A stretch of DNA of 53,810 nucleotides from a virus (lineage: Duplodnaviria > Caudoviricetes): IMG/VR virus record IMGVR_UViG_3300044814_000019, positions 1-53,810 of that record, one strand, 5' to 3'. Shown piece by piece: positions 7,933-46,014 of the stretch; the first letter of the stretch is position 1; the number at the start of each line of letters is the position of its first letter. Made by a program: the position numbers and the translations under genes. Below the pieces are notes generated by a model. The model did no database searches. It was not told the origin of the DNA and saw nothing but the letters and a program-made list of their open reading frames with translations.

Positions 7933-8283
7933 ATGAACAAGACGCAGCTTCAAACCAGTACCGCAGCCCTTATTGGCGTCGCTGCCGGCTTCGCAGCAGC
8001 CCACGGGTGGCTTGGGCTGGGCGTGGGCGACTGGACTACCATACTCGGCGCCCTAGTCGCGGCCGGCGCTGTCGTGGCTCCTGCCATCGTCACGCGCGCC
8101 ACAGCCCTGAAAGACGCCGTAGGCAGCATGCCAGCGACTACCGTCGTGACCGACAAGGCCACGGCCGACGCATTGCCCGACAATCCTAACGTGATTGCCG
8201 CCACGCCGGAAATCGTCGCCGCCGTTAAGAAGGGGAGCGATGCCACTCCCGGCGTTCCGTATACGGGCGCGACGGTGCGGTGA
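7933..8283 (+). CDS. holin-like two-TM protein
   Basis: MNKTQLQTSTAALIGVAAGFAAAHGWL..WTTILGALVAAGAVVAPAIV. RBS GGAAGGG. Confidence 0.65.
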   Translation: MNKTQLQTSTAALIGVAAGFAAAHGWLGLGVGDWTTILGALVAAGAVVAPAIVTRATALKDAVGSMPATTVVTDKATADALPDNPNVIAATPEIVAAVKKGSDATPGVPYTGATVR

Positions 8284-9824
8284 ACTTTCCGTGGGCGCCA
8301 GCAGCTTCGCTCGTACAGACTAAGGAAGCCGTACGGGCGAAGCTTTGCAATTTCGATTACTATCGTGAAAAGTTTCTGTGTGTGCGTCCTCGCGAAGGCG
8401 GCGAGCGCATTCCGTTCATCTTGAACAGTGCGCAGCGCATGTTGCATGCCCGCATCGAGCGCGAGCGCGAAGTGTTCGGAATGGTGCGGGCACTCATCCC
8501 CAAAGCGCGCCGCATGGGCGTTAGCACGTACATAGGCGGTCGGTATTTCCATCAAACTGCAACGACGTTCGGGCGGCGCGCGCAAGTCGTGGCTCATAGA
8601 GCCGACAGCGCGAGAAACCTGCACCGGGAAGTGAAAGAATTTGCCGCCGGGTTGCCGGCGGCTTTACGTCCTTCGATCGGCGCCACGAACGCTCAAGAGT
8701 TGATTTTCGACAAGCTTAAGTCGTTGTACAAAGTATCGTCGGCGGACGGTGGCGACATCGGCCGTTCTGACGACTTTCACTTATTGCATATGTCCGAAGC
8801 GGCTCTATTTGACAACGTCGAAGATTTGTCGTCGGGTTTGCTTAAGACCGTATCGAGCCTTCCCGGTACCGAAATAGCCATGGAGAGCACTGGCAACGGT
8901 CAATCCGGTATGTTCTACAACATGTGTGAACAGGCAAATGCAGATGGCAATAGGGGACCGTGGCGTATTCATTTTTTGCCGTGGTCGCTGATGCCTGAGT
9001 ACCGCACGGCAGTCCCGTTTGGCTGGAAAGCACCTAAAGAATTTGAAGACTACGCTCGGCTGCACAGTTTGGACCGTGAGCAGCTCTATTGGTTTTGGAA
9101 AGAAAACTACGACTTAGCCACCATGAACGGCGGCCAGCCCGAGACGATTCACCGACTGACACGGCAAGAGTTTCCGGCCATCTATAGCGAGTGCTTCATG
9201 GCCGATAGCACGCTGGACTTCTATCCGGCGTCGTTGGTGCAGGCAGCCATGACCAGCAAGCCAGCGCCTTCCGCTGGGGCACTGAAGCTGCTCTGTGTGG
9301 ACCCGGCTGGCGACGGTCAAGACAAGCCCTTTGTATGCGATCGGCAAGGATCTGCGATCGGAATGCGGGTGTGGGGCGAACTGGCATCCCGCGATGCTAA
9401 CGTGGCGTCTGACTGGCTTGTGGCGACATTCCGACGCTTCGATATGGACGCCATTCTGGTTGACGGTACGGGTGGCTATGGGCGCGACCTGGTGGCGGGT
9501 TGCCGGCTGCGCATGCGGGAGTTGGGGCCGGAAAAGATTGTGGCCGTCATATTCAGCCATGGCGCCAACAACTCCGTTATGTACGGCAACCGGCGTGCGG
9601 AGTTGCACGACAAGCTGCTGCGCTGGCTCGGCGGCAAGGTATCAATGCCAAACGACAAGATGGCGCAAGAGGAAGCGGCGGCGTACAAGTGGGGGCAGAA
9701 TGCCTGCCGACGTGACGAGACGGCGCGACTGTTCATGACGCCGAAAGAGAAGATCAGGAAGCAAATCGGCCGCTCGCCAGATCGCTGGGATGCGTGCGCT
9801 ATTTCTATGGCGATCGAGGGCTGA
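8280..9824 (+). CDS. terL: terminase large subunit
   Basis: LNSAQ Q-motif, KARRMGVST Walker A, LHMSE Walker B, ESTGNG coupling motif, CVDPAGDGQD and SPDRWDA nuclease motifs. Confidence 0.93.
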   Translation: MNFPWAPAASLVQTKEAVRAKLCNFDYYREKFLCVRPREGGERIPFILNSAQRMLHARIEREREVFGMVRALIPKARRMGVSTYIGGRYFHQTATTFGRRAQVVAHRADSARNLHREVKEFAAGLPAALRPSIGATNAQELIFDKLKSLYKVSSADGGDIGRSDDFHLLHMSEAALFDNVEDLSSGLLKTVSSLPGTEIAMESTGNGQSGMFYNMCEQANADGNRGPWRIHFLPWSLMPEYRTAVPFGWKAPKEFEDYARLHSLDREQLYWFWKENYDLATMNGGQPETIHRLTRQEFPAIYSECFMADSTLDFYPASLVQAAMTSKPAPSAGALKLLCVDPAGDGQDKPFVCDRQGSAIGMRVWGELASRDANVASDWLVATFRRFDMDAILVDGTGGYGRDLVAGCRLRMRELGPEKIVAVIFSHGANNSVMYGNRRAELHDKLLRWLGGKVSMPNDKMAQEEAAAYKWGQNACRRDETARLFMTPKEKIRKQIGRSPDRWDACAISMAIEG

Positions 9825-19061: not shown

Positions 19062-20510
19062 ATGCCCATAATCGACATCCTAGGTTCGTTCCAAGATCCT
19101 TTGAACTTGGACGAGGGCGCGGGGAAGCTCGTTAACGTGCGCGTCGTGCCACGCGAGCAGAAAGAAGGCAAACCCGGTAAGGCTCGTCTTGTCGGCGCAC
19201 CGGGCCTGACGCAGGTTTGCCAGCCAACGGCTGTGCCATGCATCGCTATAGGGCAAGCCCTGCGGACGGTATGGAGCGGCCACGCGGACGGTTCGATTTA
19301 TTACAACGTGCAGACCAACGCACCGTCGTTGGCCGGCTTCGTCGCTGTGGATGCGCAACAGCCCGTCATTCGTTTCGCTGAAGATCGTACAGCGCTCTGC
19401 ATCGCATCGAATGCGAATACCAACAACGCCGCGGAATACGGTACTGGCTATACGGCGGTCATGACGCCGATGGCAGGCGTTGTCAACGCTGGCTTTGACG
19501 CCAGTATTAATTTTGACCCGTCTGCCGTCGCCGAGTTGAACAACATAACGGTATGGTCCGCCGCGTCCAATTTTTATGCGAGCCAAGACAGTAAAATGTA
19601 CAGCTCGCAACCGCTGAACCCCGCTAACGTGCTGCCGAACAGCTTTGCGACGAAGGAAGCCCGTGCCGATCGCGTTGTTGATCTGGCAGTGTCGGGGCTC
19701 GTATTATGGCCCCTTGGCTCCCGCTCGCTCGAACAATGGTACGATCCGGGCGGGCAAACCGACTTCGCGTTTACAGCCTACCCGAACTCGCTTTATTCCG
19801 TGGGACTCGCTGCGCGCCTGTCGCTTGCCACGCTACGCGACATAATTATGTTCGTGGGCACTGATCGCCGCATATGGCTGTGTACGGGGCAGACGGGTCA
19901 GCCGGTATCGCCCGCATGGATCGATCTGCTTTTGCAGCAGCTCACGGCGGCAACGCTGGCGACGTTGACAGCGTATGCATACGGGCAAGGAGGCGGCGAT
20001 TTCTATGTGCTCACGCTACCCGGCCAGTGGACGCTGGAACTATGCGGCTCTACCGGCGTCTGGTCTTACCGACAAACACCTGGTGGCCGGCTGGATCATG
20101 CGGGGCGCTGTGCCACGGAATTCAGCGGAGGGGTTACATACGTCGGGCTGGATACGGGCCAAATCTGTACCGTGAACATAAACGACAGCACGGAACCGGC
20201 CGGCACGCTGCAGCGCGCCATAATAACGCCGTATGTTGGCAGCGAAGAAACGCGGCAGACGTACAATTCAATCGACGTAACGTCATCAATGGGACCGGCG
20301 GCCGGGAGCTTTCAATTGGACTGGTCCCAAGACAGGGCCGCAACTTGGAACGGTGCACGACAAATTACGATGCCGCAACCCGGTACGCAGAGAGCGATCG
20401 GCCGGAATTTCGGCACCGGACGGCGGCGACAATTCCGCTTGCAGTACAGCGGTGCGCAAGCTCCCTTTACGATTGATGAATTGTTTTGTTCGGTAAATCT
20501 AGGTACTTAG
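19062..20510 (+). CDS. tail hub / packaged-DNA stabilisation protein (P22 gp10-like)
   Basis: LVN..LVGAPGL, FATKEARAD, LGSRSLEQW, LDWSQDRAATW, NFGTGRRRQFRL. Confidence 0.82.
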   Translation: MPIIDILGSFQDPLNLDEGAGKLVNVRVVPREQKEGKPGKARLVGAPGLTQVCQPTAVPCIAIGQALRTVWSGHADGSIYYNVQTNAPSLAGFVAVDAQQPVIRFAEDRTALCIASNANTNNAAEYGTGYTAVMTPMAGVVNAGFDASINFDPSAVAELNNITVWSAASNFYASQDSKMYSSQPLNPANVLPNSFATKEARADRVVDLAVSGLVLWPLGSRSLEQWYDPGGQTDFAFTAYPNSLYSVGLAARLSLATLRDIIMFVGTDRRIWLCTGQTGQPVSPAWIDLLLQQLTAATLATLTAYAYGQGGGDFYVLTLPGQWTLELCGSTGVWSYRQTPGGRLDHAGRCATEFSGGVTYVGLDTGQICTVNINDSTEPAGTLQRAIITPYVGSEETRQTYNSIDVTSSMGPAAGSFQLDWSQDRAATWNGARQITMPQPGTQRAIGRNFGTGRRRQFRLQYSGAQAPFTIDELFCSVNLGT

Positions 20511-30250: not shown

Positions 30251-31245
30251 GGCATGTACTGCATAGCCGCTTTTATGAATTCTTCGGCTTGCGGCGCGAC
30301 GATAGCATTACCGTAGCCCCGCAAAAGTCCCACTCGATTGGCAACCCCATGAGCCAGCGGGAATGAACTGGGTTCAACTGGCCGCCACTTGTCATCTTTG
30401 CATCGAAGCCAGTCAGCAGCTCGCCAGTAGCCGTTAGTCGAGCCGGTCCCGTTATTGAAGTCACCAAGGCTTGCGTTTTTCGGCCGCTGTCCGTACTGCC
30501 CGCAGCCGTTGTTGTTGGCCAGCCCGCTAGCCATGCCGAACGGCCAAGCAGGGCATTCGTCGGAACCGTCCCCTCGCTTGCTCCGTCCTTCCAATCCCGC
30601 GTTGTTGTTGTTGGCCAGCCCGCTAACTGAACTTGTAACTCCAGAGGTTGACCCATCCCCCTCCCATGCTTCGCTATGCATCGAGCGTTCCGGGCTTCGT
30701 AATCGGACAGTTTCGGCGTCCCCCGCACCGTAAAAGCTCGTGGCGTAGGCCATCCAATAAAGCCGCTGTCTGATGTGCGGCGCCCCGAAGCCCGCAGCGC
30801 ATTGATCGAGCGCCCCGAAGGCGTAGTTCGTACCTTCCATGTCAGATTGTACAAGGTCGAGCCAAGCAAGTCCGTCCGGACTCGCAACCTGCTCGCCAAA
30901 AACGACGTCAGGTCTACACTGCTCGATAAGATGGAAAAACGCAGGCCATAAGTGCCGCTCGTCAGTAAACCCCGCGCCTTGGCCTGCTTGGCTGAAAGGT
31001 TGGCATGGGCAAGAACCGCTCCAGCTTTGCCGATCATCGGGCCACCCGGCGCGACGCATGGCGTAAGACCAGACACCGATGCCGGCGAAGAAATGGCATT
31101 GCGTGTACTTGGCAAGCTCCAAGGGAGTAACATCTTCGATGCTCCTTTCGTCGACATCGCCGGGTGCGATCATGTTCGCAGCAATCAATTTGCGCAGCCA
31201 CTCGGCTGCGAACGGGTCTTTTTCATTGTAGTAGGCTATTCCCAC
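30247..31245 (-). CDS. C5 DNA cytosine methyltransferase, alpha subunit
   Basis: FFAGIG (motif I), SCPCQPFS (IV), GEQV (VI), PHIRQRLY (VIII), GYGNAIV (X). Confidence 0.9.
   Translation of the reverse strand: MGIAYYNEKDPFAAEWLRKLIAANMIAPGDVDERSIEDVTPLELAKYTQCHFFAGIGVWSYAMRRAGWPDDRQSWSGSCPCQPFSQAGQGAGFTDERHLWPAFFHLIEQCRPDVVFGEQVASPDGLAWLDLVQSDMEGTNYAFGALDQCAAGFGAPHIRQRLYWMAYATSFYGAGDAETVRLRSPERSMHSEAWEGDGSTSGVTSSVSGLANNNNAGLEGRSKRGDGSDECPAWPFGMASGLANNNGCGQYGQRPKNASLGDFNNGTGSTNGYWRAADWLRCKDDKWRPVEPSSFPLAHGVANRVGLLRGYGNAIVAPQAEEFIKAAMQYMP
30273..31157 (-). CDS. overprinted methyltransferase beta subunit (TRD/motif IX), true start uncertain
   Basis: Long alternative-frame ORF with three GWPT repeats and LNPVHSRWLMGLPIEW (motif IX-like). 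Confidence 0.65.
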   Translation of the reverse strand: MSTKGASKMLLPWSLPSTRNAISSPASVSGLTPCVAPGGPMIGKAGAVLAHANLSAKQAKARGLLTSGTYGLRFSILSSSVDLTSFLASRLRVRTDLLGSTLYNLTWKVRTTPSGRSINALRASGRRTSDSGFIGWPTPRAFTVRGTPKLSDYEARNARCIAKHGRGMGQPLELQVQLAGWPTTTTRDWKDGASEGTVPTNALLGRSAWLAGWPTTTAAGSTDSGRKTQALVTSITGPARLTATGELLTGFDAKMTSGGQLNPVHSRWLMGLPIEWDFCGATVMLSSRRKPKNS

Positions 31246-31285
31246 GGCATCTTCTTTCGTAAATAGCTCGCATCCATCGGGTACA

Positions 31286-31870
31286 CTATTTCTCCGTCGC
31301 CGTCGTCCCAGACCACGGAAATCTCTGCATCTGCTTTTTCAGTTTTTCAACAAGTTTCTCTAGTTCTTCAATACTAGCGTCGCTTTTTATTCTGTTGGCC
31401 CGGTTACTGATAACCCACACGTTGCCGCGAACATAACCTAACGATGCCACTATTTTATCTAGTGAGGGAGACGCATCGTTAAATTTTCCCCTTCCTACTT
31501 TCAGCTCCGTACCAAACACCGGGCAGAATGCGGGTACTTGTACGTCATTTTCCGTGATGTTGAATGGGATGTTTCTTTCGGCTGCTCTTTTCTTTGCGCT
31601 TTTAAGCGAAATTTTTATAAAATCTTTTTCGTATCGCCTTCGCTCGCGCTCTTTTGCCAAGGCGGGGTCCACGGCGTACCGTTTGCGGTCTGACTCTCTG
31701 CGGCGTTCTGGGTACCTGTCGCGGTGTCTTTTATTTGCGTTTCTTCTGCACTGCATGCACTGACCGCGCTTGTCTCGGCCCGCGTCATGTCCGTTCCTGC
31801 ATGTATCACCCACGGCGTAGGCTGGTATGTCGTGTGTGCCAGAGGCGTGTGGGTCGCACCAAGGAAACAT
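31286..31870 (-). CDS. HNH/endonuclease VII-like homing endonuclease
   Basis: CRNGH..CMQC, CPVFG..PSLDKI..GYVRGNVWVISNRANRIK. Confidence 0.8.
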   Translation of the reverse strand: MFPWCDPHASGTHDIPAYAVGDTCRNGHDAGRDKRGQCMQCRRNANKRHRDRYPERRRESDRKRYAVDPALAKERERRRYEKDFIKISLKSAKKRAAERNIPFNITENDVQVPAFCPVFGTELKVGRGKFNDASPSLDKIVASLGYVRGNVWVISNRANRIKSDASIEELEKLVEKLKKQMQRFPWSGTTATEK

Positions 31871-36358: not shown

Positions 36359-36387
36359 AACGTACACACATGCCAGTACGCTGTCAA
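36359..36387 (-). promoter_or_regulatory. early promoter TTGACA-N17-TACGTT
   Basis: Canonical -35 and spacer, duplicated at 36056. Confidence 0.75.
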
Positions 36388-36971
36388 CCTCCTTCCCAAG
36401 GCATTTTTGAATTATTTTTGGCAAGCTGCTCATGTATCCTTTTTGTGGCTTCCGCCATAGTCAGGGGCTCAGGCAGCCGCCGATATGTCGCCGGTTCCAG
36501 CGGCTTCGTGGGCGGCTTCGTGGGCGGCTTGAAGCCGACGGTTTCGGCTGGCCGTTGCTGGCCGCGCAATTCCTTGAGCTGCACATACAGGCCCTCCAGC
36601 TCCTCTTTCATGGTGGCGTTGGCCGTACGCAGTGTTTCCAGTTCCTGCATTATTTCTGCCGGTACTGCTGCGATTGTGGTCTGTACGGGCGCCGACCCAT
36701 TCGCAACCGGCCTAGACGTGCCGCCGCGCGATCCGGGACCGCCGGCCTTACGTTCCGCACGGCACTTCGGGCAGTTGCGCAGCAGCAGTCCCGCGTTTTT
36801 CTTGCTGCCGTCGAGCGCGTGCCTAGTCACGTCGATGCTGATTTCAACTCCACAGGTCACGCACGGCTGCGTCACTCGGTACAGATGAATATAGTTGCCG
36901 TTCCAGAACTTTGTGACTGGGTCGCCGCCTTGCCAGCCATCCGGTAGCTCGCCATCGAATTTCGGGTGCAT
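36384..36971 (-). CDS. Zn-ribbon plus coiled-coil protein
   Basis: RBS CAGGAG. CVTC..CPKC, coiled coil, KPPT repeats, ends KMPWEGG. Confidence 0.7.
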   Translation of the reverse strand: MHPKFDGELPDGWQGGDPVTKFWNGNYIHLYRVTQPCVTCGVEISIDVTRHALDGSKKNAGLLLRNCPKCRAERKAGGPGSRGGTSRPVANGSAPVQTTIAAVPAEIMQELETLRTANATMKEELEGLYVQLKELRGQQRPAETVGFKPPTKPPTKPLEPATYRRLPEPLTMAEATKRIHEQLAKNNSKMPWEGG

Positions 36972-37185
36972 GTCAAAAACTCCTGTAAATCGCATTAATG
37001 CGTGTAAATTTCTGTGTAAACCACAATTCACCGCAGCGCAACATGTAAATTCACCGTATCACGTACTTGTGAACTCACGGTGAAAAGCCGTAAATTTACA
37101 GCGTACATATTCAATCAGTCCCTTCGAAGTGTGGGGGTGTGCAGGCTAAGCAGTAGCACACCCACTAGACGAGGGGGAGTCAGAG

Positions 37186-38983: not shown

Positions 38984-39216
38984 ACATCAAAGAATTCGGC
39001 GCACTCAAAGTCGGCGACAAGATCAGCAATCTCGCCATCGGCGGCTTGAACTGCGGCGAGATTGTCGAATGCACGTCCAGCGGCGTGCGTGTCGTGTGGG
39101 GGCCGCGCCATGATCGCGAGACGCGGTTTTTCTACAGCGTCGTTGGCACGTCTTGGATGCAATGGAGCAGCGTGACACCGCTTGGAGACGTGACACCGCT
39201 TGGAGACGTGCCATGA
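38980..39216 (+). CDS. small SH3/Tudor-like hypothetical protein
   Basis: MNIKEFGALKVGDKI..GEIV..VRVVW. Confidence 0.6.
   Translation: MNIKEFGALKVGDKISNLAIGGLNCGEIVECTSSGVRVVWGPRHDRETRFFYSVVGTSWMQWSSVTPLGDVTPLGDVP
39171..39210 (+). repeat. 18-bp tandem duplication containing the gcrA RBS
   Basis: CGTGACACCGCTTGGAGA x2 followed by CGTG. Confidence 0.9.
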
Positions 39217-39569
39217 CGCTGTGGACCGAGGAACGCGATACGCAGCTCCGCAAGTTGCGCGATCGGGGTTTTACGTTCGATGATATCGCTGCCAAGCTGG
39301 ACACGACTAAGGGCAGCGTCATCGGCAGGGCGGGTAGGCTCGGCCTGCCGAAGCGAGGGCAGCCCGTATGGCGGCACGTCTACCATCGCGCTGTCGCGTC
39401 AACTCCGTTGCTGCCTTCTGTTGGCCCTGTTGCGTTGCTCGACCTGGAGCCGCACCATTGCCGTTGGCCGGTCAATGACGCGCCTTACTTGTTCTGCGCC
39501 GGCACGAAAATCGACGGCAGTTCGTACTGCGAGCATCATTTCGGCGTATCCAGGCGTGGGGTGACATGA
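39213..39569 (+). CDS. gcrA: GcrA-family cell-cycle regulator
   Basis: WTEER..LRKL..GFTFDDIAAKL..TKGSVIGRAGRLGL (HTH) and LLDL..HCRWPV..FC..SYCEHH (sigma-binding Zn domain). Confidence 0.92.
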   Translation: MTLWTEERDTQLRKLRDRGFTFDDIAAKLDTTKGSVIGRAGRLGLPKRGQPVWRHVYHRAVASTPLLPSVGPVALLDLEPHHCRWPVNDAPYLFCAGTKIDGSSYCEHHFGVSRRGVT

Positions 39570-43100: not shown

Positions 43101-44143
43101 GGCCTAATCCGAAATACGAAGCCGCGAAAAAGCAGGCGGACGATGCAACAGCGGCGATTAAAGCCGACCATGGGCAAAATCCTGATGATGTGGTTCATGC
43201 GTATGAACAAGCAACGTCCGGCGTGTCGGCCGGGGAAGCGGCAGTCATGCGCAAGGCTGCGAGTGAAAAAGCCGCTACGTCACAGGGCTACAATCAGCTA
43301 CGCCAAGACGCACGCGATGCCGGCGTCGGAGCGCCGAAGTCCAATCAACCGACGCCTAACGGCCCGCTTGCGCAGATCCGTACCGCAGAAAACCCGACGG
43401 GCGTGGTCGAGGCTAAATTTGCACCCGATGCGCAGCACGCCGAAATGCTGATTAAAGCGCCCGCTAAAGATTGGGGCGAAAAGTGGCAGCAATTGCAGAA
43501 TGCTGGTAGCGAATTGATCCAGAAGCGCATGGCGTTTCTGCAAAACGGCGATCGGCCAAGCGCAGACGCGATGGATGGCATCTTCCAAGGCGTACGGAAC
43601 CAGCAAAAGGCAGCGGCGGAATACGTATTCGGCGCGAAGAAAGGCGGTGAAGTCATCAGTCGGCTTGAAAATCTGGATCAGCGTTATGCTAAGGTCATGA
43701 ATGCGACGCAGGGGATGGACTACGGCAAAATGCGGAGTGTAATTCAGGCCGGCAACACGCCGGAACGTCGCGCGCTGGAAAAGAACTTCAAGGCGTTCGC
43801 GGGCGACGATCCTTCGGCCATGCGTGCGTTCAATGCAATGAAAGCTGGCGCGAAGGGGCGCTTGACCGACGAAGCCAAGTTGATGGTCCCGCTTATTACG
43901 GCTGAAAGTTTGGCGCACTTCGGCGGCATTCCGACTTTCGGCGTCATAAGCGCGGCGGTTGGCGGTCATCGCCTATACAAAGTCATGCAGCAGTTCATGA
44001 ACGCCAAAGTGCTCGGGCGGCCGGTCAAATTCAGAGATTTTTTCAATCGAGAACTGCAGTCGAGCGGTGCCGGACAGGCCGTCAGGGGCGCAGTACAGCG
44101 CGGCGCCGTACAAGGTGACGCGCTGGCCGGCGTCTCGCCATAA
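40121..44143 (+). CDS. large internal virion/ejection protein with lytic transglycosylase domain
   Basis: 1340 aa from ATG 40121. VDPALMRRFAQIESG..GLFN..NPEDNARAAA..YLVHNQG (SLT-like). Gly/Ala-rich membrane-spanning-like segment. Confidence 0.82.
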   Translation: MADDFGSGLAALDNSGTLPAKMPQPQGNPIQQFGSSLAKILPGPHYTSLPPGAPALDQAENQLKQQVDRASQVAANPIAQLFAPEQVQAARNFVPKAAEQLRTIAQQKQQQVDIQKSATNFGMPQSAQNPFMTNDTIDNWLLDQYKAGDFSKANMLKARGKGDWVQDFAGQAVDGAGAKLAAANGVITKLNAAGGNQPAYAATLRSLSPQEKQSITSLGLQTIPEKASDWQDVVQQHGAAFLQAQQLHSQVSQKLANITNFDGTVPKDVESASHGDIRIGSSNEPAGFPVRTRSIDGQTGHVGPNGSVQMEKYGLAPKVGGWNATNPDRLAKNDKMLAGDDVKGAINQYNIANKFKNEAMNLGMYSSSAGLALLKDTLGGVGRDVAEKSAAAGTTGLSQMFSNQMGGVEGFINRATSEIAAYKNWVDGGKKGDRPRMSDQTMRGLQFIANENYNYAQQQATGRLSGPMRDAGQIGRPLEDMPLDADLKASVAQYHEEGRVDAINGWRSYPSIVRGNQRIFFPQGSNVNGASAPRPPLNTDGSANGGSSLTPVPQAGQTADAPVSGGGASPRPVPSPSASQPSSGTGQPFKNPQVNDAITKVSAETGVDPALMRRFAQIESGGRAGPEADTGSYRGLFNLSVPEFNKYGGGDIHNPEDNARAAANKLKAEAAQFQAANGRPPTPAEQYLVHNQGAAGLAAHEANPDAPAWQNMYATGEGRQKGIAWAKKAVWGNIPDDVKAKFPGGVDSVTSRQFIDVWQAKFGGGSASSNAPAPAADPAAPTSLTPRQREAMARRGIDTSAAPRGLTPEQQAAYSEQMAQQGRDMVGAAPAALGTIGALGGGALGGPPGAVAGGAAGSGAGQVLKDYVQGNAQSPAKIAEQAALGGVLGVASAARPVLAAAGRVVGSGAIEAGTKAAEGGSGPEIVDAGLRGAAEGLGGEALGRFVSSGGAAMYKAVSRYTTPAQQELMDHAGKLAAAREVLKTEQPKLPGDTGPNPKYEAAKKQADDATAAIKADHGQNPDDVVHAYEQATSGVSAGEAAVMRKAASEKAATSQGYNQLRQDARDAGVGAPKSNQPTPNGPLAQIRTAENPTGVVEAKFAPDAQHAEMLIKAPAKDWGEKWQQLQNAGSELIQKRMAFLQNGDRPSADAMDGIFQGVRNQQKAAAEYVFGAKKGGEVISRLENLDQRYAKVMNATQGMDYGKMRSVIQAGNTPERRALEKNFKAFAGDDPSAMRAFNAMKAGAKGRLTDEAKLMVPLITAESLAHFGGIPTFGVISAAVGGHRLYKVMQQFMNAKVLGRPVKFRDFFNRELQSSGAGQAVRGAVQRGAVQGDALAGVSP

Positions 44144-44151
44144 GGTACGCA

Positions 44152-44460
44152 ATGTTTCCGTGGCTGTTCACGCAAAAACCAAAAGCGACGGCGCCACGCG
44201 AGGTCATGCTGGATCGGTTGCGAGAAGGCGTACCATCGGAGTTAGCGGCTCGCGCCGCTGGCATCGAATGGAGCGCGGTAAAAGACGACCCTGAAATAGA
44301 CAAGGCACTCGCCGAAGGTGAAATACTACTGTTCGAACGAGCGCGTGACAGTGGCGTTACCGGCGTCGTACGCGCGGCGCTCAGGAACGAGACGAAGTCG
44401 TGGGTCCCCAAAGCTGAAGCGCCGCTAGGACTCAGTTTAGAAGACTATTTGCGTGATTAA
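44152..44460 (+). CDS. probable terminase small subunit (HTH)
   Basis: LREGVPSELAARAAGI HTH, helical core, LSLEDYL C-terminus. No other TerS candidate was seen. Confidence 0.5.
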   Translation: MFPWLFTQKPKATAPREVMLDRLREGVPSELAARAAGIEWSAVKDDPEIDKALAEGEILLFERARDSGVTGVVRAALRNETKSWVPKAEAPLGLSLEDYLRD

Positions 44461-44956
44461 GGGGTATCCAACCTGTTTTATCGTTCTTTCTTCGGTTGCA
44501 TGTTATGCACGCCCAAACTAAGTTGTTTTCAGTGTGTTTGCCGCCTTTAGATACTGGCGCTATATGATCTAACTCGCCTTCACCATGCAGCGCTGAACCA
44601 CAGTACGCGCACTTATCGTTTTGTGACGCACGGAGCGCGTCAAGAAAATGCTTATCAACAGCGCTGGTTTCTTTTTCAGCCGCGCGCCTTCTGTGTCGCT
44701 GTTTAGCGTTTTTAGCTTTCGCAGCGGCGGGATTTGACGTACGCCATAGTTTTTCACTGGTACTTTGTTTTTCGGGATTGTTATGACGCCAGCGATTATT
44801 AATGGTGCGTTTCTTTTCAAGGTTGCCGACGCGCCAACGTTCTTTGCTCGCGCGAGCGCAAGGCACGCACAGCTTTTTATTGGCTGCCGCGTAACGCAAC
44901 GTGCCGCCGCAGTTACGGCAGGGTTTCCCATGGAAGTGTTTGTTTTGGTTTTTCAT
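44432..44956 (-). CDS. HNH endonuclease
   Basis: CRNC..CVPC, CAYCG..LDHIAPVSKGGKHTENNLVWACITCNRRK. Confidence 0.88.
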   Translation of the reverse strand: MKNQNKHFHGKPCRNCGGTLRYAAANKKLCVPCARASKERWRVGNLEKKRTINNRWRHNNPEKQSTSEKLWRTSNPAAAKAKNAKQRHRRRAAEKETSAVDKHFLDALRASQNDKCAYCGSALHGEGELDHIAPVSKGGKHTENNLVWACITCNRRKNDKTGWIPLNHANSLLN

Positions 44957-45062
44957 CTTTTTGCGTTTTAAGCATGTACGGCGCAACGTTGTTGGCGTCG
45001 CGTTTGAGAAATGTAGGGATTTCGAGGCTGTCCCGTACAGGTGACTTCTCCCAGGGCATCAT
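44913..45062 (-). CDS. 49-aa protein carrying an FtsZ C-terminal-peptide-like motif
   Basis: RBS GGAG. DSLEIPTFLKRDAN. Candidate promoter TTGACG-N17-TTATCT upstream. Confidence 0.6.
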   Translation of the reverse strand: MMPWEKSPVRDSLEIPTFLKRDANNVAPYMLKTQKDEKPKQTLPWETLP

Positions 45063-45240
45063 ATGTGTGCGTCTCCAGTCTGCCGTACGGACATGCACAG
45101 ATAACGCCGTTTACAAACCTGCGTCAACCCACTAAATGTATGACATGCGCCCATCTGAAAAACTAGCCCTTGCGGTATGACATTTTACCCGCTAGCTTCT
45201 TGTCCATTGATTTCCTTTTGCTAATCGAAAGGCAGCTCCA

Positions 45241-45978
45241 ATGTTCAATATCGTAAACGCCGGCCAGCTCGGAGGCGGTTACCGCCATTACTCCGGTTTG
45301 CTGCCACTCACGCCCGGTGACGGCGGACCGCAGGCGCAAGCGTCTGTCCGTGTGTTCCACATCCCCGCAGCCAACGCAGCGGCGATTTTTCGGGGCGATA
45401 TCGTCGTAATGGCGTCGGGCTCAATCGGCACGCCAGGCGCGGCCGACCTGCCTCAAAACATCGGTACGCCGGCAACGCCGTCCGTCGTCATCGGCAACGG
45501 CGGCGGTACGTTGCTCGGCAACGCATCCATGGTTGCGAACATCACTCGTTGGGTGCCTGGTGACACGACCAGCGTCATTGCCGGCGTCGTTGTGGGTTGG
45601 GGGCCGATCACGCTGTACCAAGCGAAAAACGGTTTTCAGTACGCGCCGGCATCCACCGAGTGCTGGGCATTTGTCGAAACCGATCCGGCGCTTGAAATGA
45701 GCTGCACCATGCCGACCGTGCCGGGCACTGCGTTCAATCTCGATCTTCAATCCGGCATCGACTTGAAGGCCAATGCCGGGCAGCAATCGACGCGCTTTGG
45801 CATTTCGGGTGTGTCGCTCGACCCGGCGACCATCGCGACCACGTCCACGCTGCCACTTCGCATCCTCGACAGCGGCCAGCAAATCGGCAACGATCCGACT
45901 GCTGCCGGCTTCGTCGCCCGCGTTCAGTTCAACCTTTCTCGCCACTACAGGGGCGGCGCCGGCTTCGTCGCCGACTAG
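45241..45978 (+). CDS. capsid decoration/cement-like protein
   Basis: AAAIFRGDIVVM..GVVVG..VETDP..TLPLRIL. Strong codon bias similar to the capsid gene. Confidence 0.65.
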   Translation: MFNIVNAGQLGGGYRHYSGLLPLTPGDGGPQAQASVRVFHIPAANAAAIFRGDIVVMASGSIGTPGAADLPQNIGTPATPSVVIGNGGGTLLGNASMVANITRWVPGDTTSVIAGVVVGWGPITLYQAKNGFQYAPASTECWAFVETDPALEMSCTMPTVPGTAFNLDLQSGIDLKANAGQQSTRFGISGVSLDPATIATTSTLPLRILDSGQQIGNDPTAAGFVARVQFNLSRHYRGGAGFVAD

Positions 45979-46014
45979 CCCGCTACGCAGTCACAGGAAC
46001 GAAGGGACATCACA

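Follow-up and report, generated by a model that had tools for sequence, protein, structure and literature searches.

A 49-residue phage protein contains a motif that resembles the C-terminal peptide of alphaproteobacterial FtsZ

RESULTS

Gene content and features of the locus

The window analyzed here is a complete soil phage genome from IMG/VR, 53,810 bp in length with direct terminal repeats. PHROG matches identify a DNA polymerase, a helicase, a primase, a Gp2.5-like SSB, an exonuclease, a DNA methyltransferase, and the large terminase, as well as a 482-aa connector protein (phrog_578, 19062-20510) and tail fibre proteins; no FtsZ_C domain is found anywhere in the genome. On the minus strand, the ORF list contains a 49-aa frame at 45062..44913. 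Just upstream of this region lies the gene for a 1360-aa protein that matches only PHROG families of unknown function. The features of the locus are as follows.

44152..44460, plus strand: 102-aa neighbour gene, convergent; its product starts M-F-P-W and matches no Pfam or PHROG family
44432..44986, minus strand: HNH endonuclease gene, likely ATG at 44956 (Pfam HNH, 3.9e-12; phrog_1035, 8.6e-23)
44913..45062, minus strand: gene for the 49-aa small protein, ATG at 45062, stop at 44915-44913
44925..44933, minus strand: C-terminal P-W-E (residues 44-46), within the overlap with the HNH frame
44973..44990, minus strand: extension N25-M30 (N-x-A-P-Y-M)
44991..45032, minus strand: FtsZ C-terminal-peptide-like motif, residues D11-N24
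45048..45056, minus strand: N-terminal P-W-E (residues 3-5), part of the M-x-P-W-E start
45073..45076, minus strand: ribosome-binding site GGAG
45241..45978, plus strand: 245-aa neighbour gene, divergent; blastn 68-76% to L002, L003, L007, and L008; no family

The original prediction had proposed an ORF at 44913-45062, with no strand named, that has its own ribosome-binding site and a candidate promoter, an FtsZ-like core at 45000-45026, and two PWE motifs. The frame is present, on the minus strand, and GGAG at 45076..45073 stands 10 nt ahead of its ATG. Residues 13 to 21 map to 45026..45000 exactly, and both P-W-E motifs are where the protein was said to carry them. The promoter was not recovered: a sigma-70 consensus scan of 44300-45400 gave 0 sites, and a terminator scan of the same interval also gave 0. 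The starts of the small gene and the 245-aa gene are separated by 178 nt of intergenic DNA. GGAG or GAGG also precedes the homologues of the small gene in L002, L003, L098, and L101. Because all 16 small-protein homologues share the start M-x-(x)-P-W-E, and because a stop codon lies one codon upstream of the start in L003, we regard the start codon as fixed.

The HNH gene overlaps the genes on both sides. Its overlap with the small gene covers the last 15 codons of the latter in another frame, from 44 nt (ATG 44956) to 74 nt (TTG 44986). L002, L003, L007, and L011 have the same flanking genes with no HNH gene between them, and the gene looks like a homing-type insertion in the phage sequence. 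As these relatives carry the small gene without it, we take the HNH gene as the insertion and the small frame as something other than its leader. The possibility that the small frame is the N-terminal part of the HNH protein, joined by frameshift, was rejected on the same grounds. Homologues of the 102-aa gene adjoin the small gene in L003, L007, L011, and G103.

Elsewhere in the genome, the first ~25 residues of a 194-aa ORF (31286-31870, minus strand) match a stand-alone 68-aa protein of phages G103 and G105, and the rest of this ORF is an endonuclease VII/HNH domain (phrog_3322). By its sequence, it looks like a second endonuclease insertion, in this case fused to a P-W-tagged small gene.

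Conservation of the small gene

A protein search with the 49-aa protein recovered nine homologues of 47 to 77 aa. Together with DNA-pattern and locus searches of related phage contigs and of a representative library, it gave 16 homologues in total (47 to 102 aa), which were aligned with the query (alignment A4, 17 sequences). Fifteen positions are invariant: M1, P3, W4, E5, D11, P16, L19, K20, R21, D22, N24, N25, A27, P28, and M30. Indels among the homologues are all in-frame. Over the first 30 codons, synonymous and nonsynonymous differences number 8 and 5 in the comparison with L002, 7 and 7 with L003, and 7 and 7 in a third comparison. The gene also holds its place between the 245-aa and 102-aa genes in L002, L003, L007, L008, and L011. 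Comparative evidence of this kind indicates that the small ORF is a real, conserved gene and that it is under purifying selection.

Two other accounts of the ORF were considered. The small protein has no Pfam or PHROG family, as would be the case for an untranslated frame that is open by chance. Given that 15 residues are invariant across the 17 aligned sequences and that the indels are in-frame, and given the GGAG, an excess of synonymous change, a kept position, and a motif expected only 1.7e-7 times per window (see below), we consider this account exceedingly improbable. The ORF might instead be a leader or coupling ORF that delivers ribosomes to the HNH gene or regulates it, as the overlap of 44 to 74 nt on the same strand would permit. 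This too is very improbable, for it is contradicted already by the four relatives that keep the small gene and have no HNH gene, and the sequence of the small peptide is itself conserved.

At E<=0.01, the small protein matches no Pfam and no PHROG family and so stands outside the Kil, Icd, and Gp0.4-type families represented there. Searches of cultured phages gave only E=8 noise in a Synechococcus phage for the 49-aa protein (tblastn), no match for 44100-46000 (blastn), and no match for a 176-aa carrier of the motif; a 25-aa FtsZ tail gave only noise at E 2-9 and one mis-filed Salmonella FtsZ. Scans of bacterial genome contigs and of viral contigs with alignment A1 found no relatives, and a single-protein scan of the viral contigs with the small protein found one locus, which encodes a histone-like carrier of the motif. 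The ESM Atlas returned only sub-0.9 feature matches to unnamed clusters. Contigs of four soil DNA runs were also compared. The sequence in run X1 was identical over the 43900-45900 region, making X1 a possible source of the phage. In run X2 only 43928-44882 and 45047-45659 were matched, so that most of the small gene was uncovered. One contig of run X3 joins 44447 to 45073 with the intervening letters unread, which fits the HNH-less relatives weakly.

AlphaFold2 modeling of the small protein with a 17-row alignment gave a pLDDT of 66, a pTM of 0.22, and no stable fold. The model has 3-residue helical turns at three motifs and no helix of 4 or more residues. On this model, we favor reading the small protein as a disordered chain in which short motifs follow one another.

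Resemblance of the central motif to the FtsZ tail

Ten of the 14 residues of D11-N24 are the same as in the commonest FtsZ tail of the Nitrobacter family, and one more is a K/R exchange. The tails used for comparison were 29 FtsZ ends read from Nitrobacter-family genomes. The peptide fits the acidic lead-in and L-[DE]-[IV]-P-x-[FY]-[LIM]-[KR]-[KR] in full, and x-A-N follows. In an analytic estimate from residue frequencies, L[DE]IPxFL[KR][KR] should occur 5.9e-5 times across the six translated frames of the window, and 1.7e-7 times when xAN is added; each pattern was observed once. The FtsZ of a Nitrobacter MAG and that of a second genome, both reached through a motif carrier from Afipia sp. 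P52-10, end in an acidic run, L-D-I-P-A-F-L-R-R-Q-A-N/T, and a stop.

A profile built from the phage small proteins alone, with no FtsZ included (A1), was used in a six-frame search of 101 Nitrobacter-family genomes at E<=10. It matched 92 of them. In 83 of these 92, the FtsZ_C domain is followed directly, on the same contig and strand, by the best match; these 83 genomes are relatives with near-identical tails and therefore amount to one comparison repeated. Counted from the other side, FtsZ_C was found in 95 genomes and a tail match stands beside it in 86, and two of the nine exceptions concern short contigs (C223 of G058, which reads as an FtsZ end, L040, and C226 of G072). The best 30 loci comprise 29 FtsZ ends and one mobile-element protein. 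Of the FtsZ ends, 26 finish R-R-Q-A-N, one Q-A-T, and two Q-A. Profile positions 10 to 24 are the part that aligns to the FtsZ tails, and the E-values per genome are modest (0.0008 to 1.7). The search showed that nothing else in these host-family genomes resembles the phage motif, as a sequence, more than the FtsZ tail does. The proposed likeness to the alphaproteobacterial FtsZ C-terminal peptide is thus specific. A PDB sequence search with the A4 profile found no FtsZ, its only match being an unrelated plant protein (E 0.9).

Features that depart from simple FtsZ mimicry

The original prediction had made conservation of the motif in homologues a point on which it could fail, and here the outcome is divided. 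I-P, L-K-R, and A-N are invariant or nearly so across the small family (I nearly invariant), but the position of the FtsZ Phe is F in only 6 of the 17 sequences, with I in 4, C in 4, M in 2, and A in 1. Variation is also seen at the acidic residue ahead of I-P. Among the matches listed, histone-like carriers of the motif have F at this position throughout.

The small family also keeps residues that FtsZ does not have. FtsZ frames stop right after the N, and the extension beyond it is absent from FtsZ; N25, A27, P28, and M30, within the extension, are invariant in A4. The strongest conservation in the small family, KRDANNxAPxM, reaches six residues past the FtsZ end. The motif is internal in the small protein, whereas in FtsZ it is the free C-terminus. 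One small-family member (L011:670-975, minus strand; P0122) carries an insertion rich in Cys and His and repeats A-N-N-R-A-P-F-M without the rest of the motif. Repetition of this distal block hints that it is a module of its own. Because conservation peaks past the FtsZ end and P0122 repeats that part alone, the true partner of the small protein might read the distal half.

Occurrence of the motif on unrelated phage and mobile-element proteins

The FtsZ-like core recurs on several kinds of phage and mobile-element proteins, among them histone-like, ParB/MT-A70, and GapR-like proteins. L-[DEG]-I-P-x-F-L-[KR]-R is found at the N-terminus of a Lys/Ala-rich, DNA-binder-like family of 160 to 190 aa that has no Pfam family. 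Its members (L001:2980-3510, L004:3709-4179, L006:568-1134, and P0014-P0021) begin with the FtsZ-tail-like motif, continue in a linker rich in Lys, Ala, and Pro, and end in a conserved domain of ~70 aa. Many of them have an internal Met right after the motif, and a shorter, motif-less form may also be made from such frames. In the phage histone-like/winged-helix-like family, the likeness to the small protein is an identical extended motif, I-P-x-F-L-K-R-D-A-N-N-x-A-x-F-M, at the protein end; these proteins differ from it in having the linker and the ~70-aa domain, in lacking P-W tags, and in belonging to other phage lineages.

A library search with profile A2 gave 348 matches, a number that mostly counts the C-terminal domain of the long carriers, which the profile included. 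Among the matches listed, 37 of 149 representatives have the motif near the N-terminus, and their sequences diverge after K-R. Clusters of the small family account for 6 of 150 matches listed in the search of the representative library with A2. At the C-terminus, the motif is found on ParB/MT-A70 proteins (P0011/L018 at G062:C7; L052 at G001:C5) in Afipia, Nitrobacter, and others. Further proteins that end in it are L054, L057, and the 167-aa P0012, and a GapR-like protein (P0013, PF10073) closes with it too.

Across the carriers only the FtsZ-like half is constant and the residues after F-L-K-R vary freely, from which we argue that the FtsZ-like half is the working part. Such a spread over unrelated proteins is, at the level of sequence, the signature of a portable docking motif.

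Hydrophobic-Pro-Trp tags

The N-terminal P-W-E is invariant in 17 of 17 small-family sequences. A P-W near the C-terminal end is present in 12 of the 17 and absent in 5. Four likely genes of the window, which start at 8280, 44152, 31870, and 45062, have an N-terminal hydrophobic-Pro-Trp tag.

8280-8300, plus strand: tag of the large terminase
31856-31870, minus strand: tag of the 194-aa endonuclease fusion
44152-44165, plus strand: tag of the 102-aa neighbour
45048-45062, minus strand: tag of the small protein

About 0.39 tagged genes are expected per 74 ORFs; with three counted, in an ORF set without the gene at 44152, the Poisson P is 0.008. The start codon of the terminase is inferred only from its longest frame. 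The tag is kept in the related phages G103, G104, and G105, and the terminases of three relatives (L092-L094) start with two tandem tags in a form close to the start of the small protein. Because the Pro and Phe codons differ between copies, selection appears to act on the tag peptide. The notion of a hub that binds P-W motifs, part of the original prediction, gains some footing here, since the large terminase and three further small proteins of the phage group carry the tag too.

The tag is also seen at L095:293, L097:3265, L100:806 and 871, and L103:6599. It is often followed by Pro-rich residues, and it heads a 68-aa and a 69-aa protein family in related phages. Two frames of the window end K-M-P-W-E, one at 36384-37031 (minus strand; G-G follows) and one at about 31245-31260 (minus strand), and are possible C-terminal copies of the tag.

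A GcrA-like gene in the same genome

One other gene of the genome may bear on the host cell cycle.

39153-39569, plus strand: GcrA-like cell-cycle regulator gene (PF07750, 7.7e-18)

The protein is 29 to 49% identical to copies in 38 of 41 Nitrobacter-family genomes. The distribution of GcrA presumably points to an alphaproteobacterial host for the phage. Together, the GcrA-like gene and the FtsZ-tail motif suggest a theme of cell-cycle interference.

DISCUSSION

The FtsZ C-terminal peptide of Caulobacter is required for binding of FtsA and FzlC and for cytokinesis; as described for FtsZ that lacks it, rings form and the cells do not divide (10.1101/632075). A phage protein that presents a copy of this peptide could interfere at the same point. 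We give about an even chance to the reading that the small protein is a decoy or adaptor for the receptors of the FtsZ tail (FtsA, FzlC) that blocks or redirects division. The protein would consist of three short linear motifs, namely the N-terminal M-x-P-W-E tag, a central copy of the FtsZ docking peptide, and, usually, a C-terminal P-W. In the infected host, an alphaproteobacterium that probably belongs to the Nitrobacter/Bradyrhizobium family, the FtsZ-tail pocket on FtsA and, where present, FzlC would be filled by the central motif, with other readers of the tail possible. The Z-ring would lose its coupling to its membrane anchors and to signalling downstream, and cytokinesis would be blocked. 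The extra N-x-A-P-aromatic-M residues would add affinity or a second contact, and the P-W tags may meanwhile connect the small protein to a phage partner. The proposal of a division inhibitor or adaptor is thus borne out as far as a conserved gene and a specific likeness to the FtsZ tail are concerned, but the Phe position is not conserved. A complex prediction for the FtsA of the Nitrobacter MAG (19-row alignment A3) and the small protein (A1) gave, without controls, a score of 0.00 and is evidence neither way.

Two other functions have to be weighed against that of a receptor decoy or adaptor. The conserved stretch L-K-R-D-A-N-N-x-A-P-aromatic-M might dock onto some other hub of the host or phage, in which case the FtsZ likeness would be partial, incidental, or an ancient capture without retained function. 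Conservation is highest where FtsZ has no counterpart, the Phe position is free, A-N-N-R-A-P-F-M is repeated alone in L011/P0122, and most carriers (methylase, GapR-like, and histone-like) are associated with DNA and have no obvious need for a partner at the division site, all of which would fit such a hub. Against it, in the wider set of carriers the FtsZ-like half is constant and what follows F-L-K-R is variable, the A-N end that is specific to the FtsZ of this family is part of the match, and the hosts offer no better match to the profile in 83 of 92 genomes; on balance we see another hub as possible but unlikely. The remaining alternative gives the protein a positioning role, with the P-W tags holding a phage partner that also reads the terminase tag and the FtsZ-like centre holding FtsA or FzlC, so that packaging or assembly is placed at the membrane or division site. 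The tag on four likely genes of the window when ~0.39 are expected, its retention in G103, G104, and G105 and doubling on their terminases, the differing Pro and Phe codons that indicate selection on the protein, and the second P-W near the C-terminal end in 12 of 17 small-family members speak for this role. However, nothing links the terminase to FtsA, the C-terminal P-W is absent in 5 of 17 members, and the terminase start comes from the longest frame alone, and we hold this role to be doubtful.

A still broader scheme would combine these elements, and we put it forward as improbable. In this scheme, alphaproteobacterial phages and mobile elements graft the FtsZ tail as an address label onto DNA binders, methylases, and mini-proteins in order to plug into FtsA or FzlC. 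With its three motifs, the small protein would then link a phage hub, read via the tags shared with the terminase, to the division or membrane machinery of the host, both arresting division and positioning a phage process.

Returning to the small protein as a decoy or adaptor for FtsZ-tail receptors, we compared it with known systems. It does not belong to the FtsZ/tubulin family, as it has 49 aa, no Pfam match, and no tubulin GTPase or FtsZ_C domain; without a GTPase domain or linker, it is not an FtsZ homologue. Its likeness to the FtsZ C-terminal peptide (CTC/CCTP) as described in 10.1101/632075 consists of the 10/14 identity, the acidic lead-in, L-E-I-P-x-F-L, two basic residues, x-A-N, and a disordered context. 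It differs in the internal position of the motif, in six further conserved residues, in K-R-D where FtsZ has R-R-Q, and in the Phe position that varies among its homologues. Free C-terminal fragments of E. coli FtsZ (residues 354-383) inhibit growth in vivo (Savinov et al., as reported in PMC10769210). These free tail peptides of ~30 residues are dominant-negative in cells and are the artificial counterpart of what we propose; they are laboratory pieces of a host protein, whereas the small protein is a natural, separately evolving phage gene product with extra motifs.

Tiny peptides that stop host division also bear comparison. T7 Gp0.4 and B. subtilis MciZ are such peptides, within a range of about 40 to 75 aa, and they act on FtsZ. 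Lambda Kil (PMC3961180) and P1 Icd (PMC11897509), small division inhibitors encoded by phages, are of the same order of size and, as described in these sources, also act on FtsZ. The small protein is proposed to act instead on the receptors of FtsZ, by imitation, and it has no sequence relation to any of the four (no PHROG or Pfam match). No description of a phage mimic of the FtsZ tail was found in the literature searched.

Short-linear-motif mimicry is a well-known strategy of eukaryotic viruses. The new aspect of the small phage protein is that it would hinder host division by imitating the docking peptide of FtsZ and not by acting on FtsZ. If true, this would amount to a new way for a phage to take over its host, as the phage division blockers checked act on FtsZ itself, and it would be among the few documented cases of such mimicry in bacterial viruses. 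The protein would in addition offer a ready probe of the FtsA/FzlC pocket of Alphaproteobacteria. Finally, unrelated proteins of phages and mobile elements bear the same label, which suggests that the division machinery serves as a landing site more widely than has been recognised.
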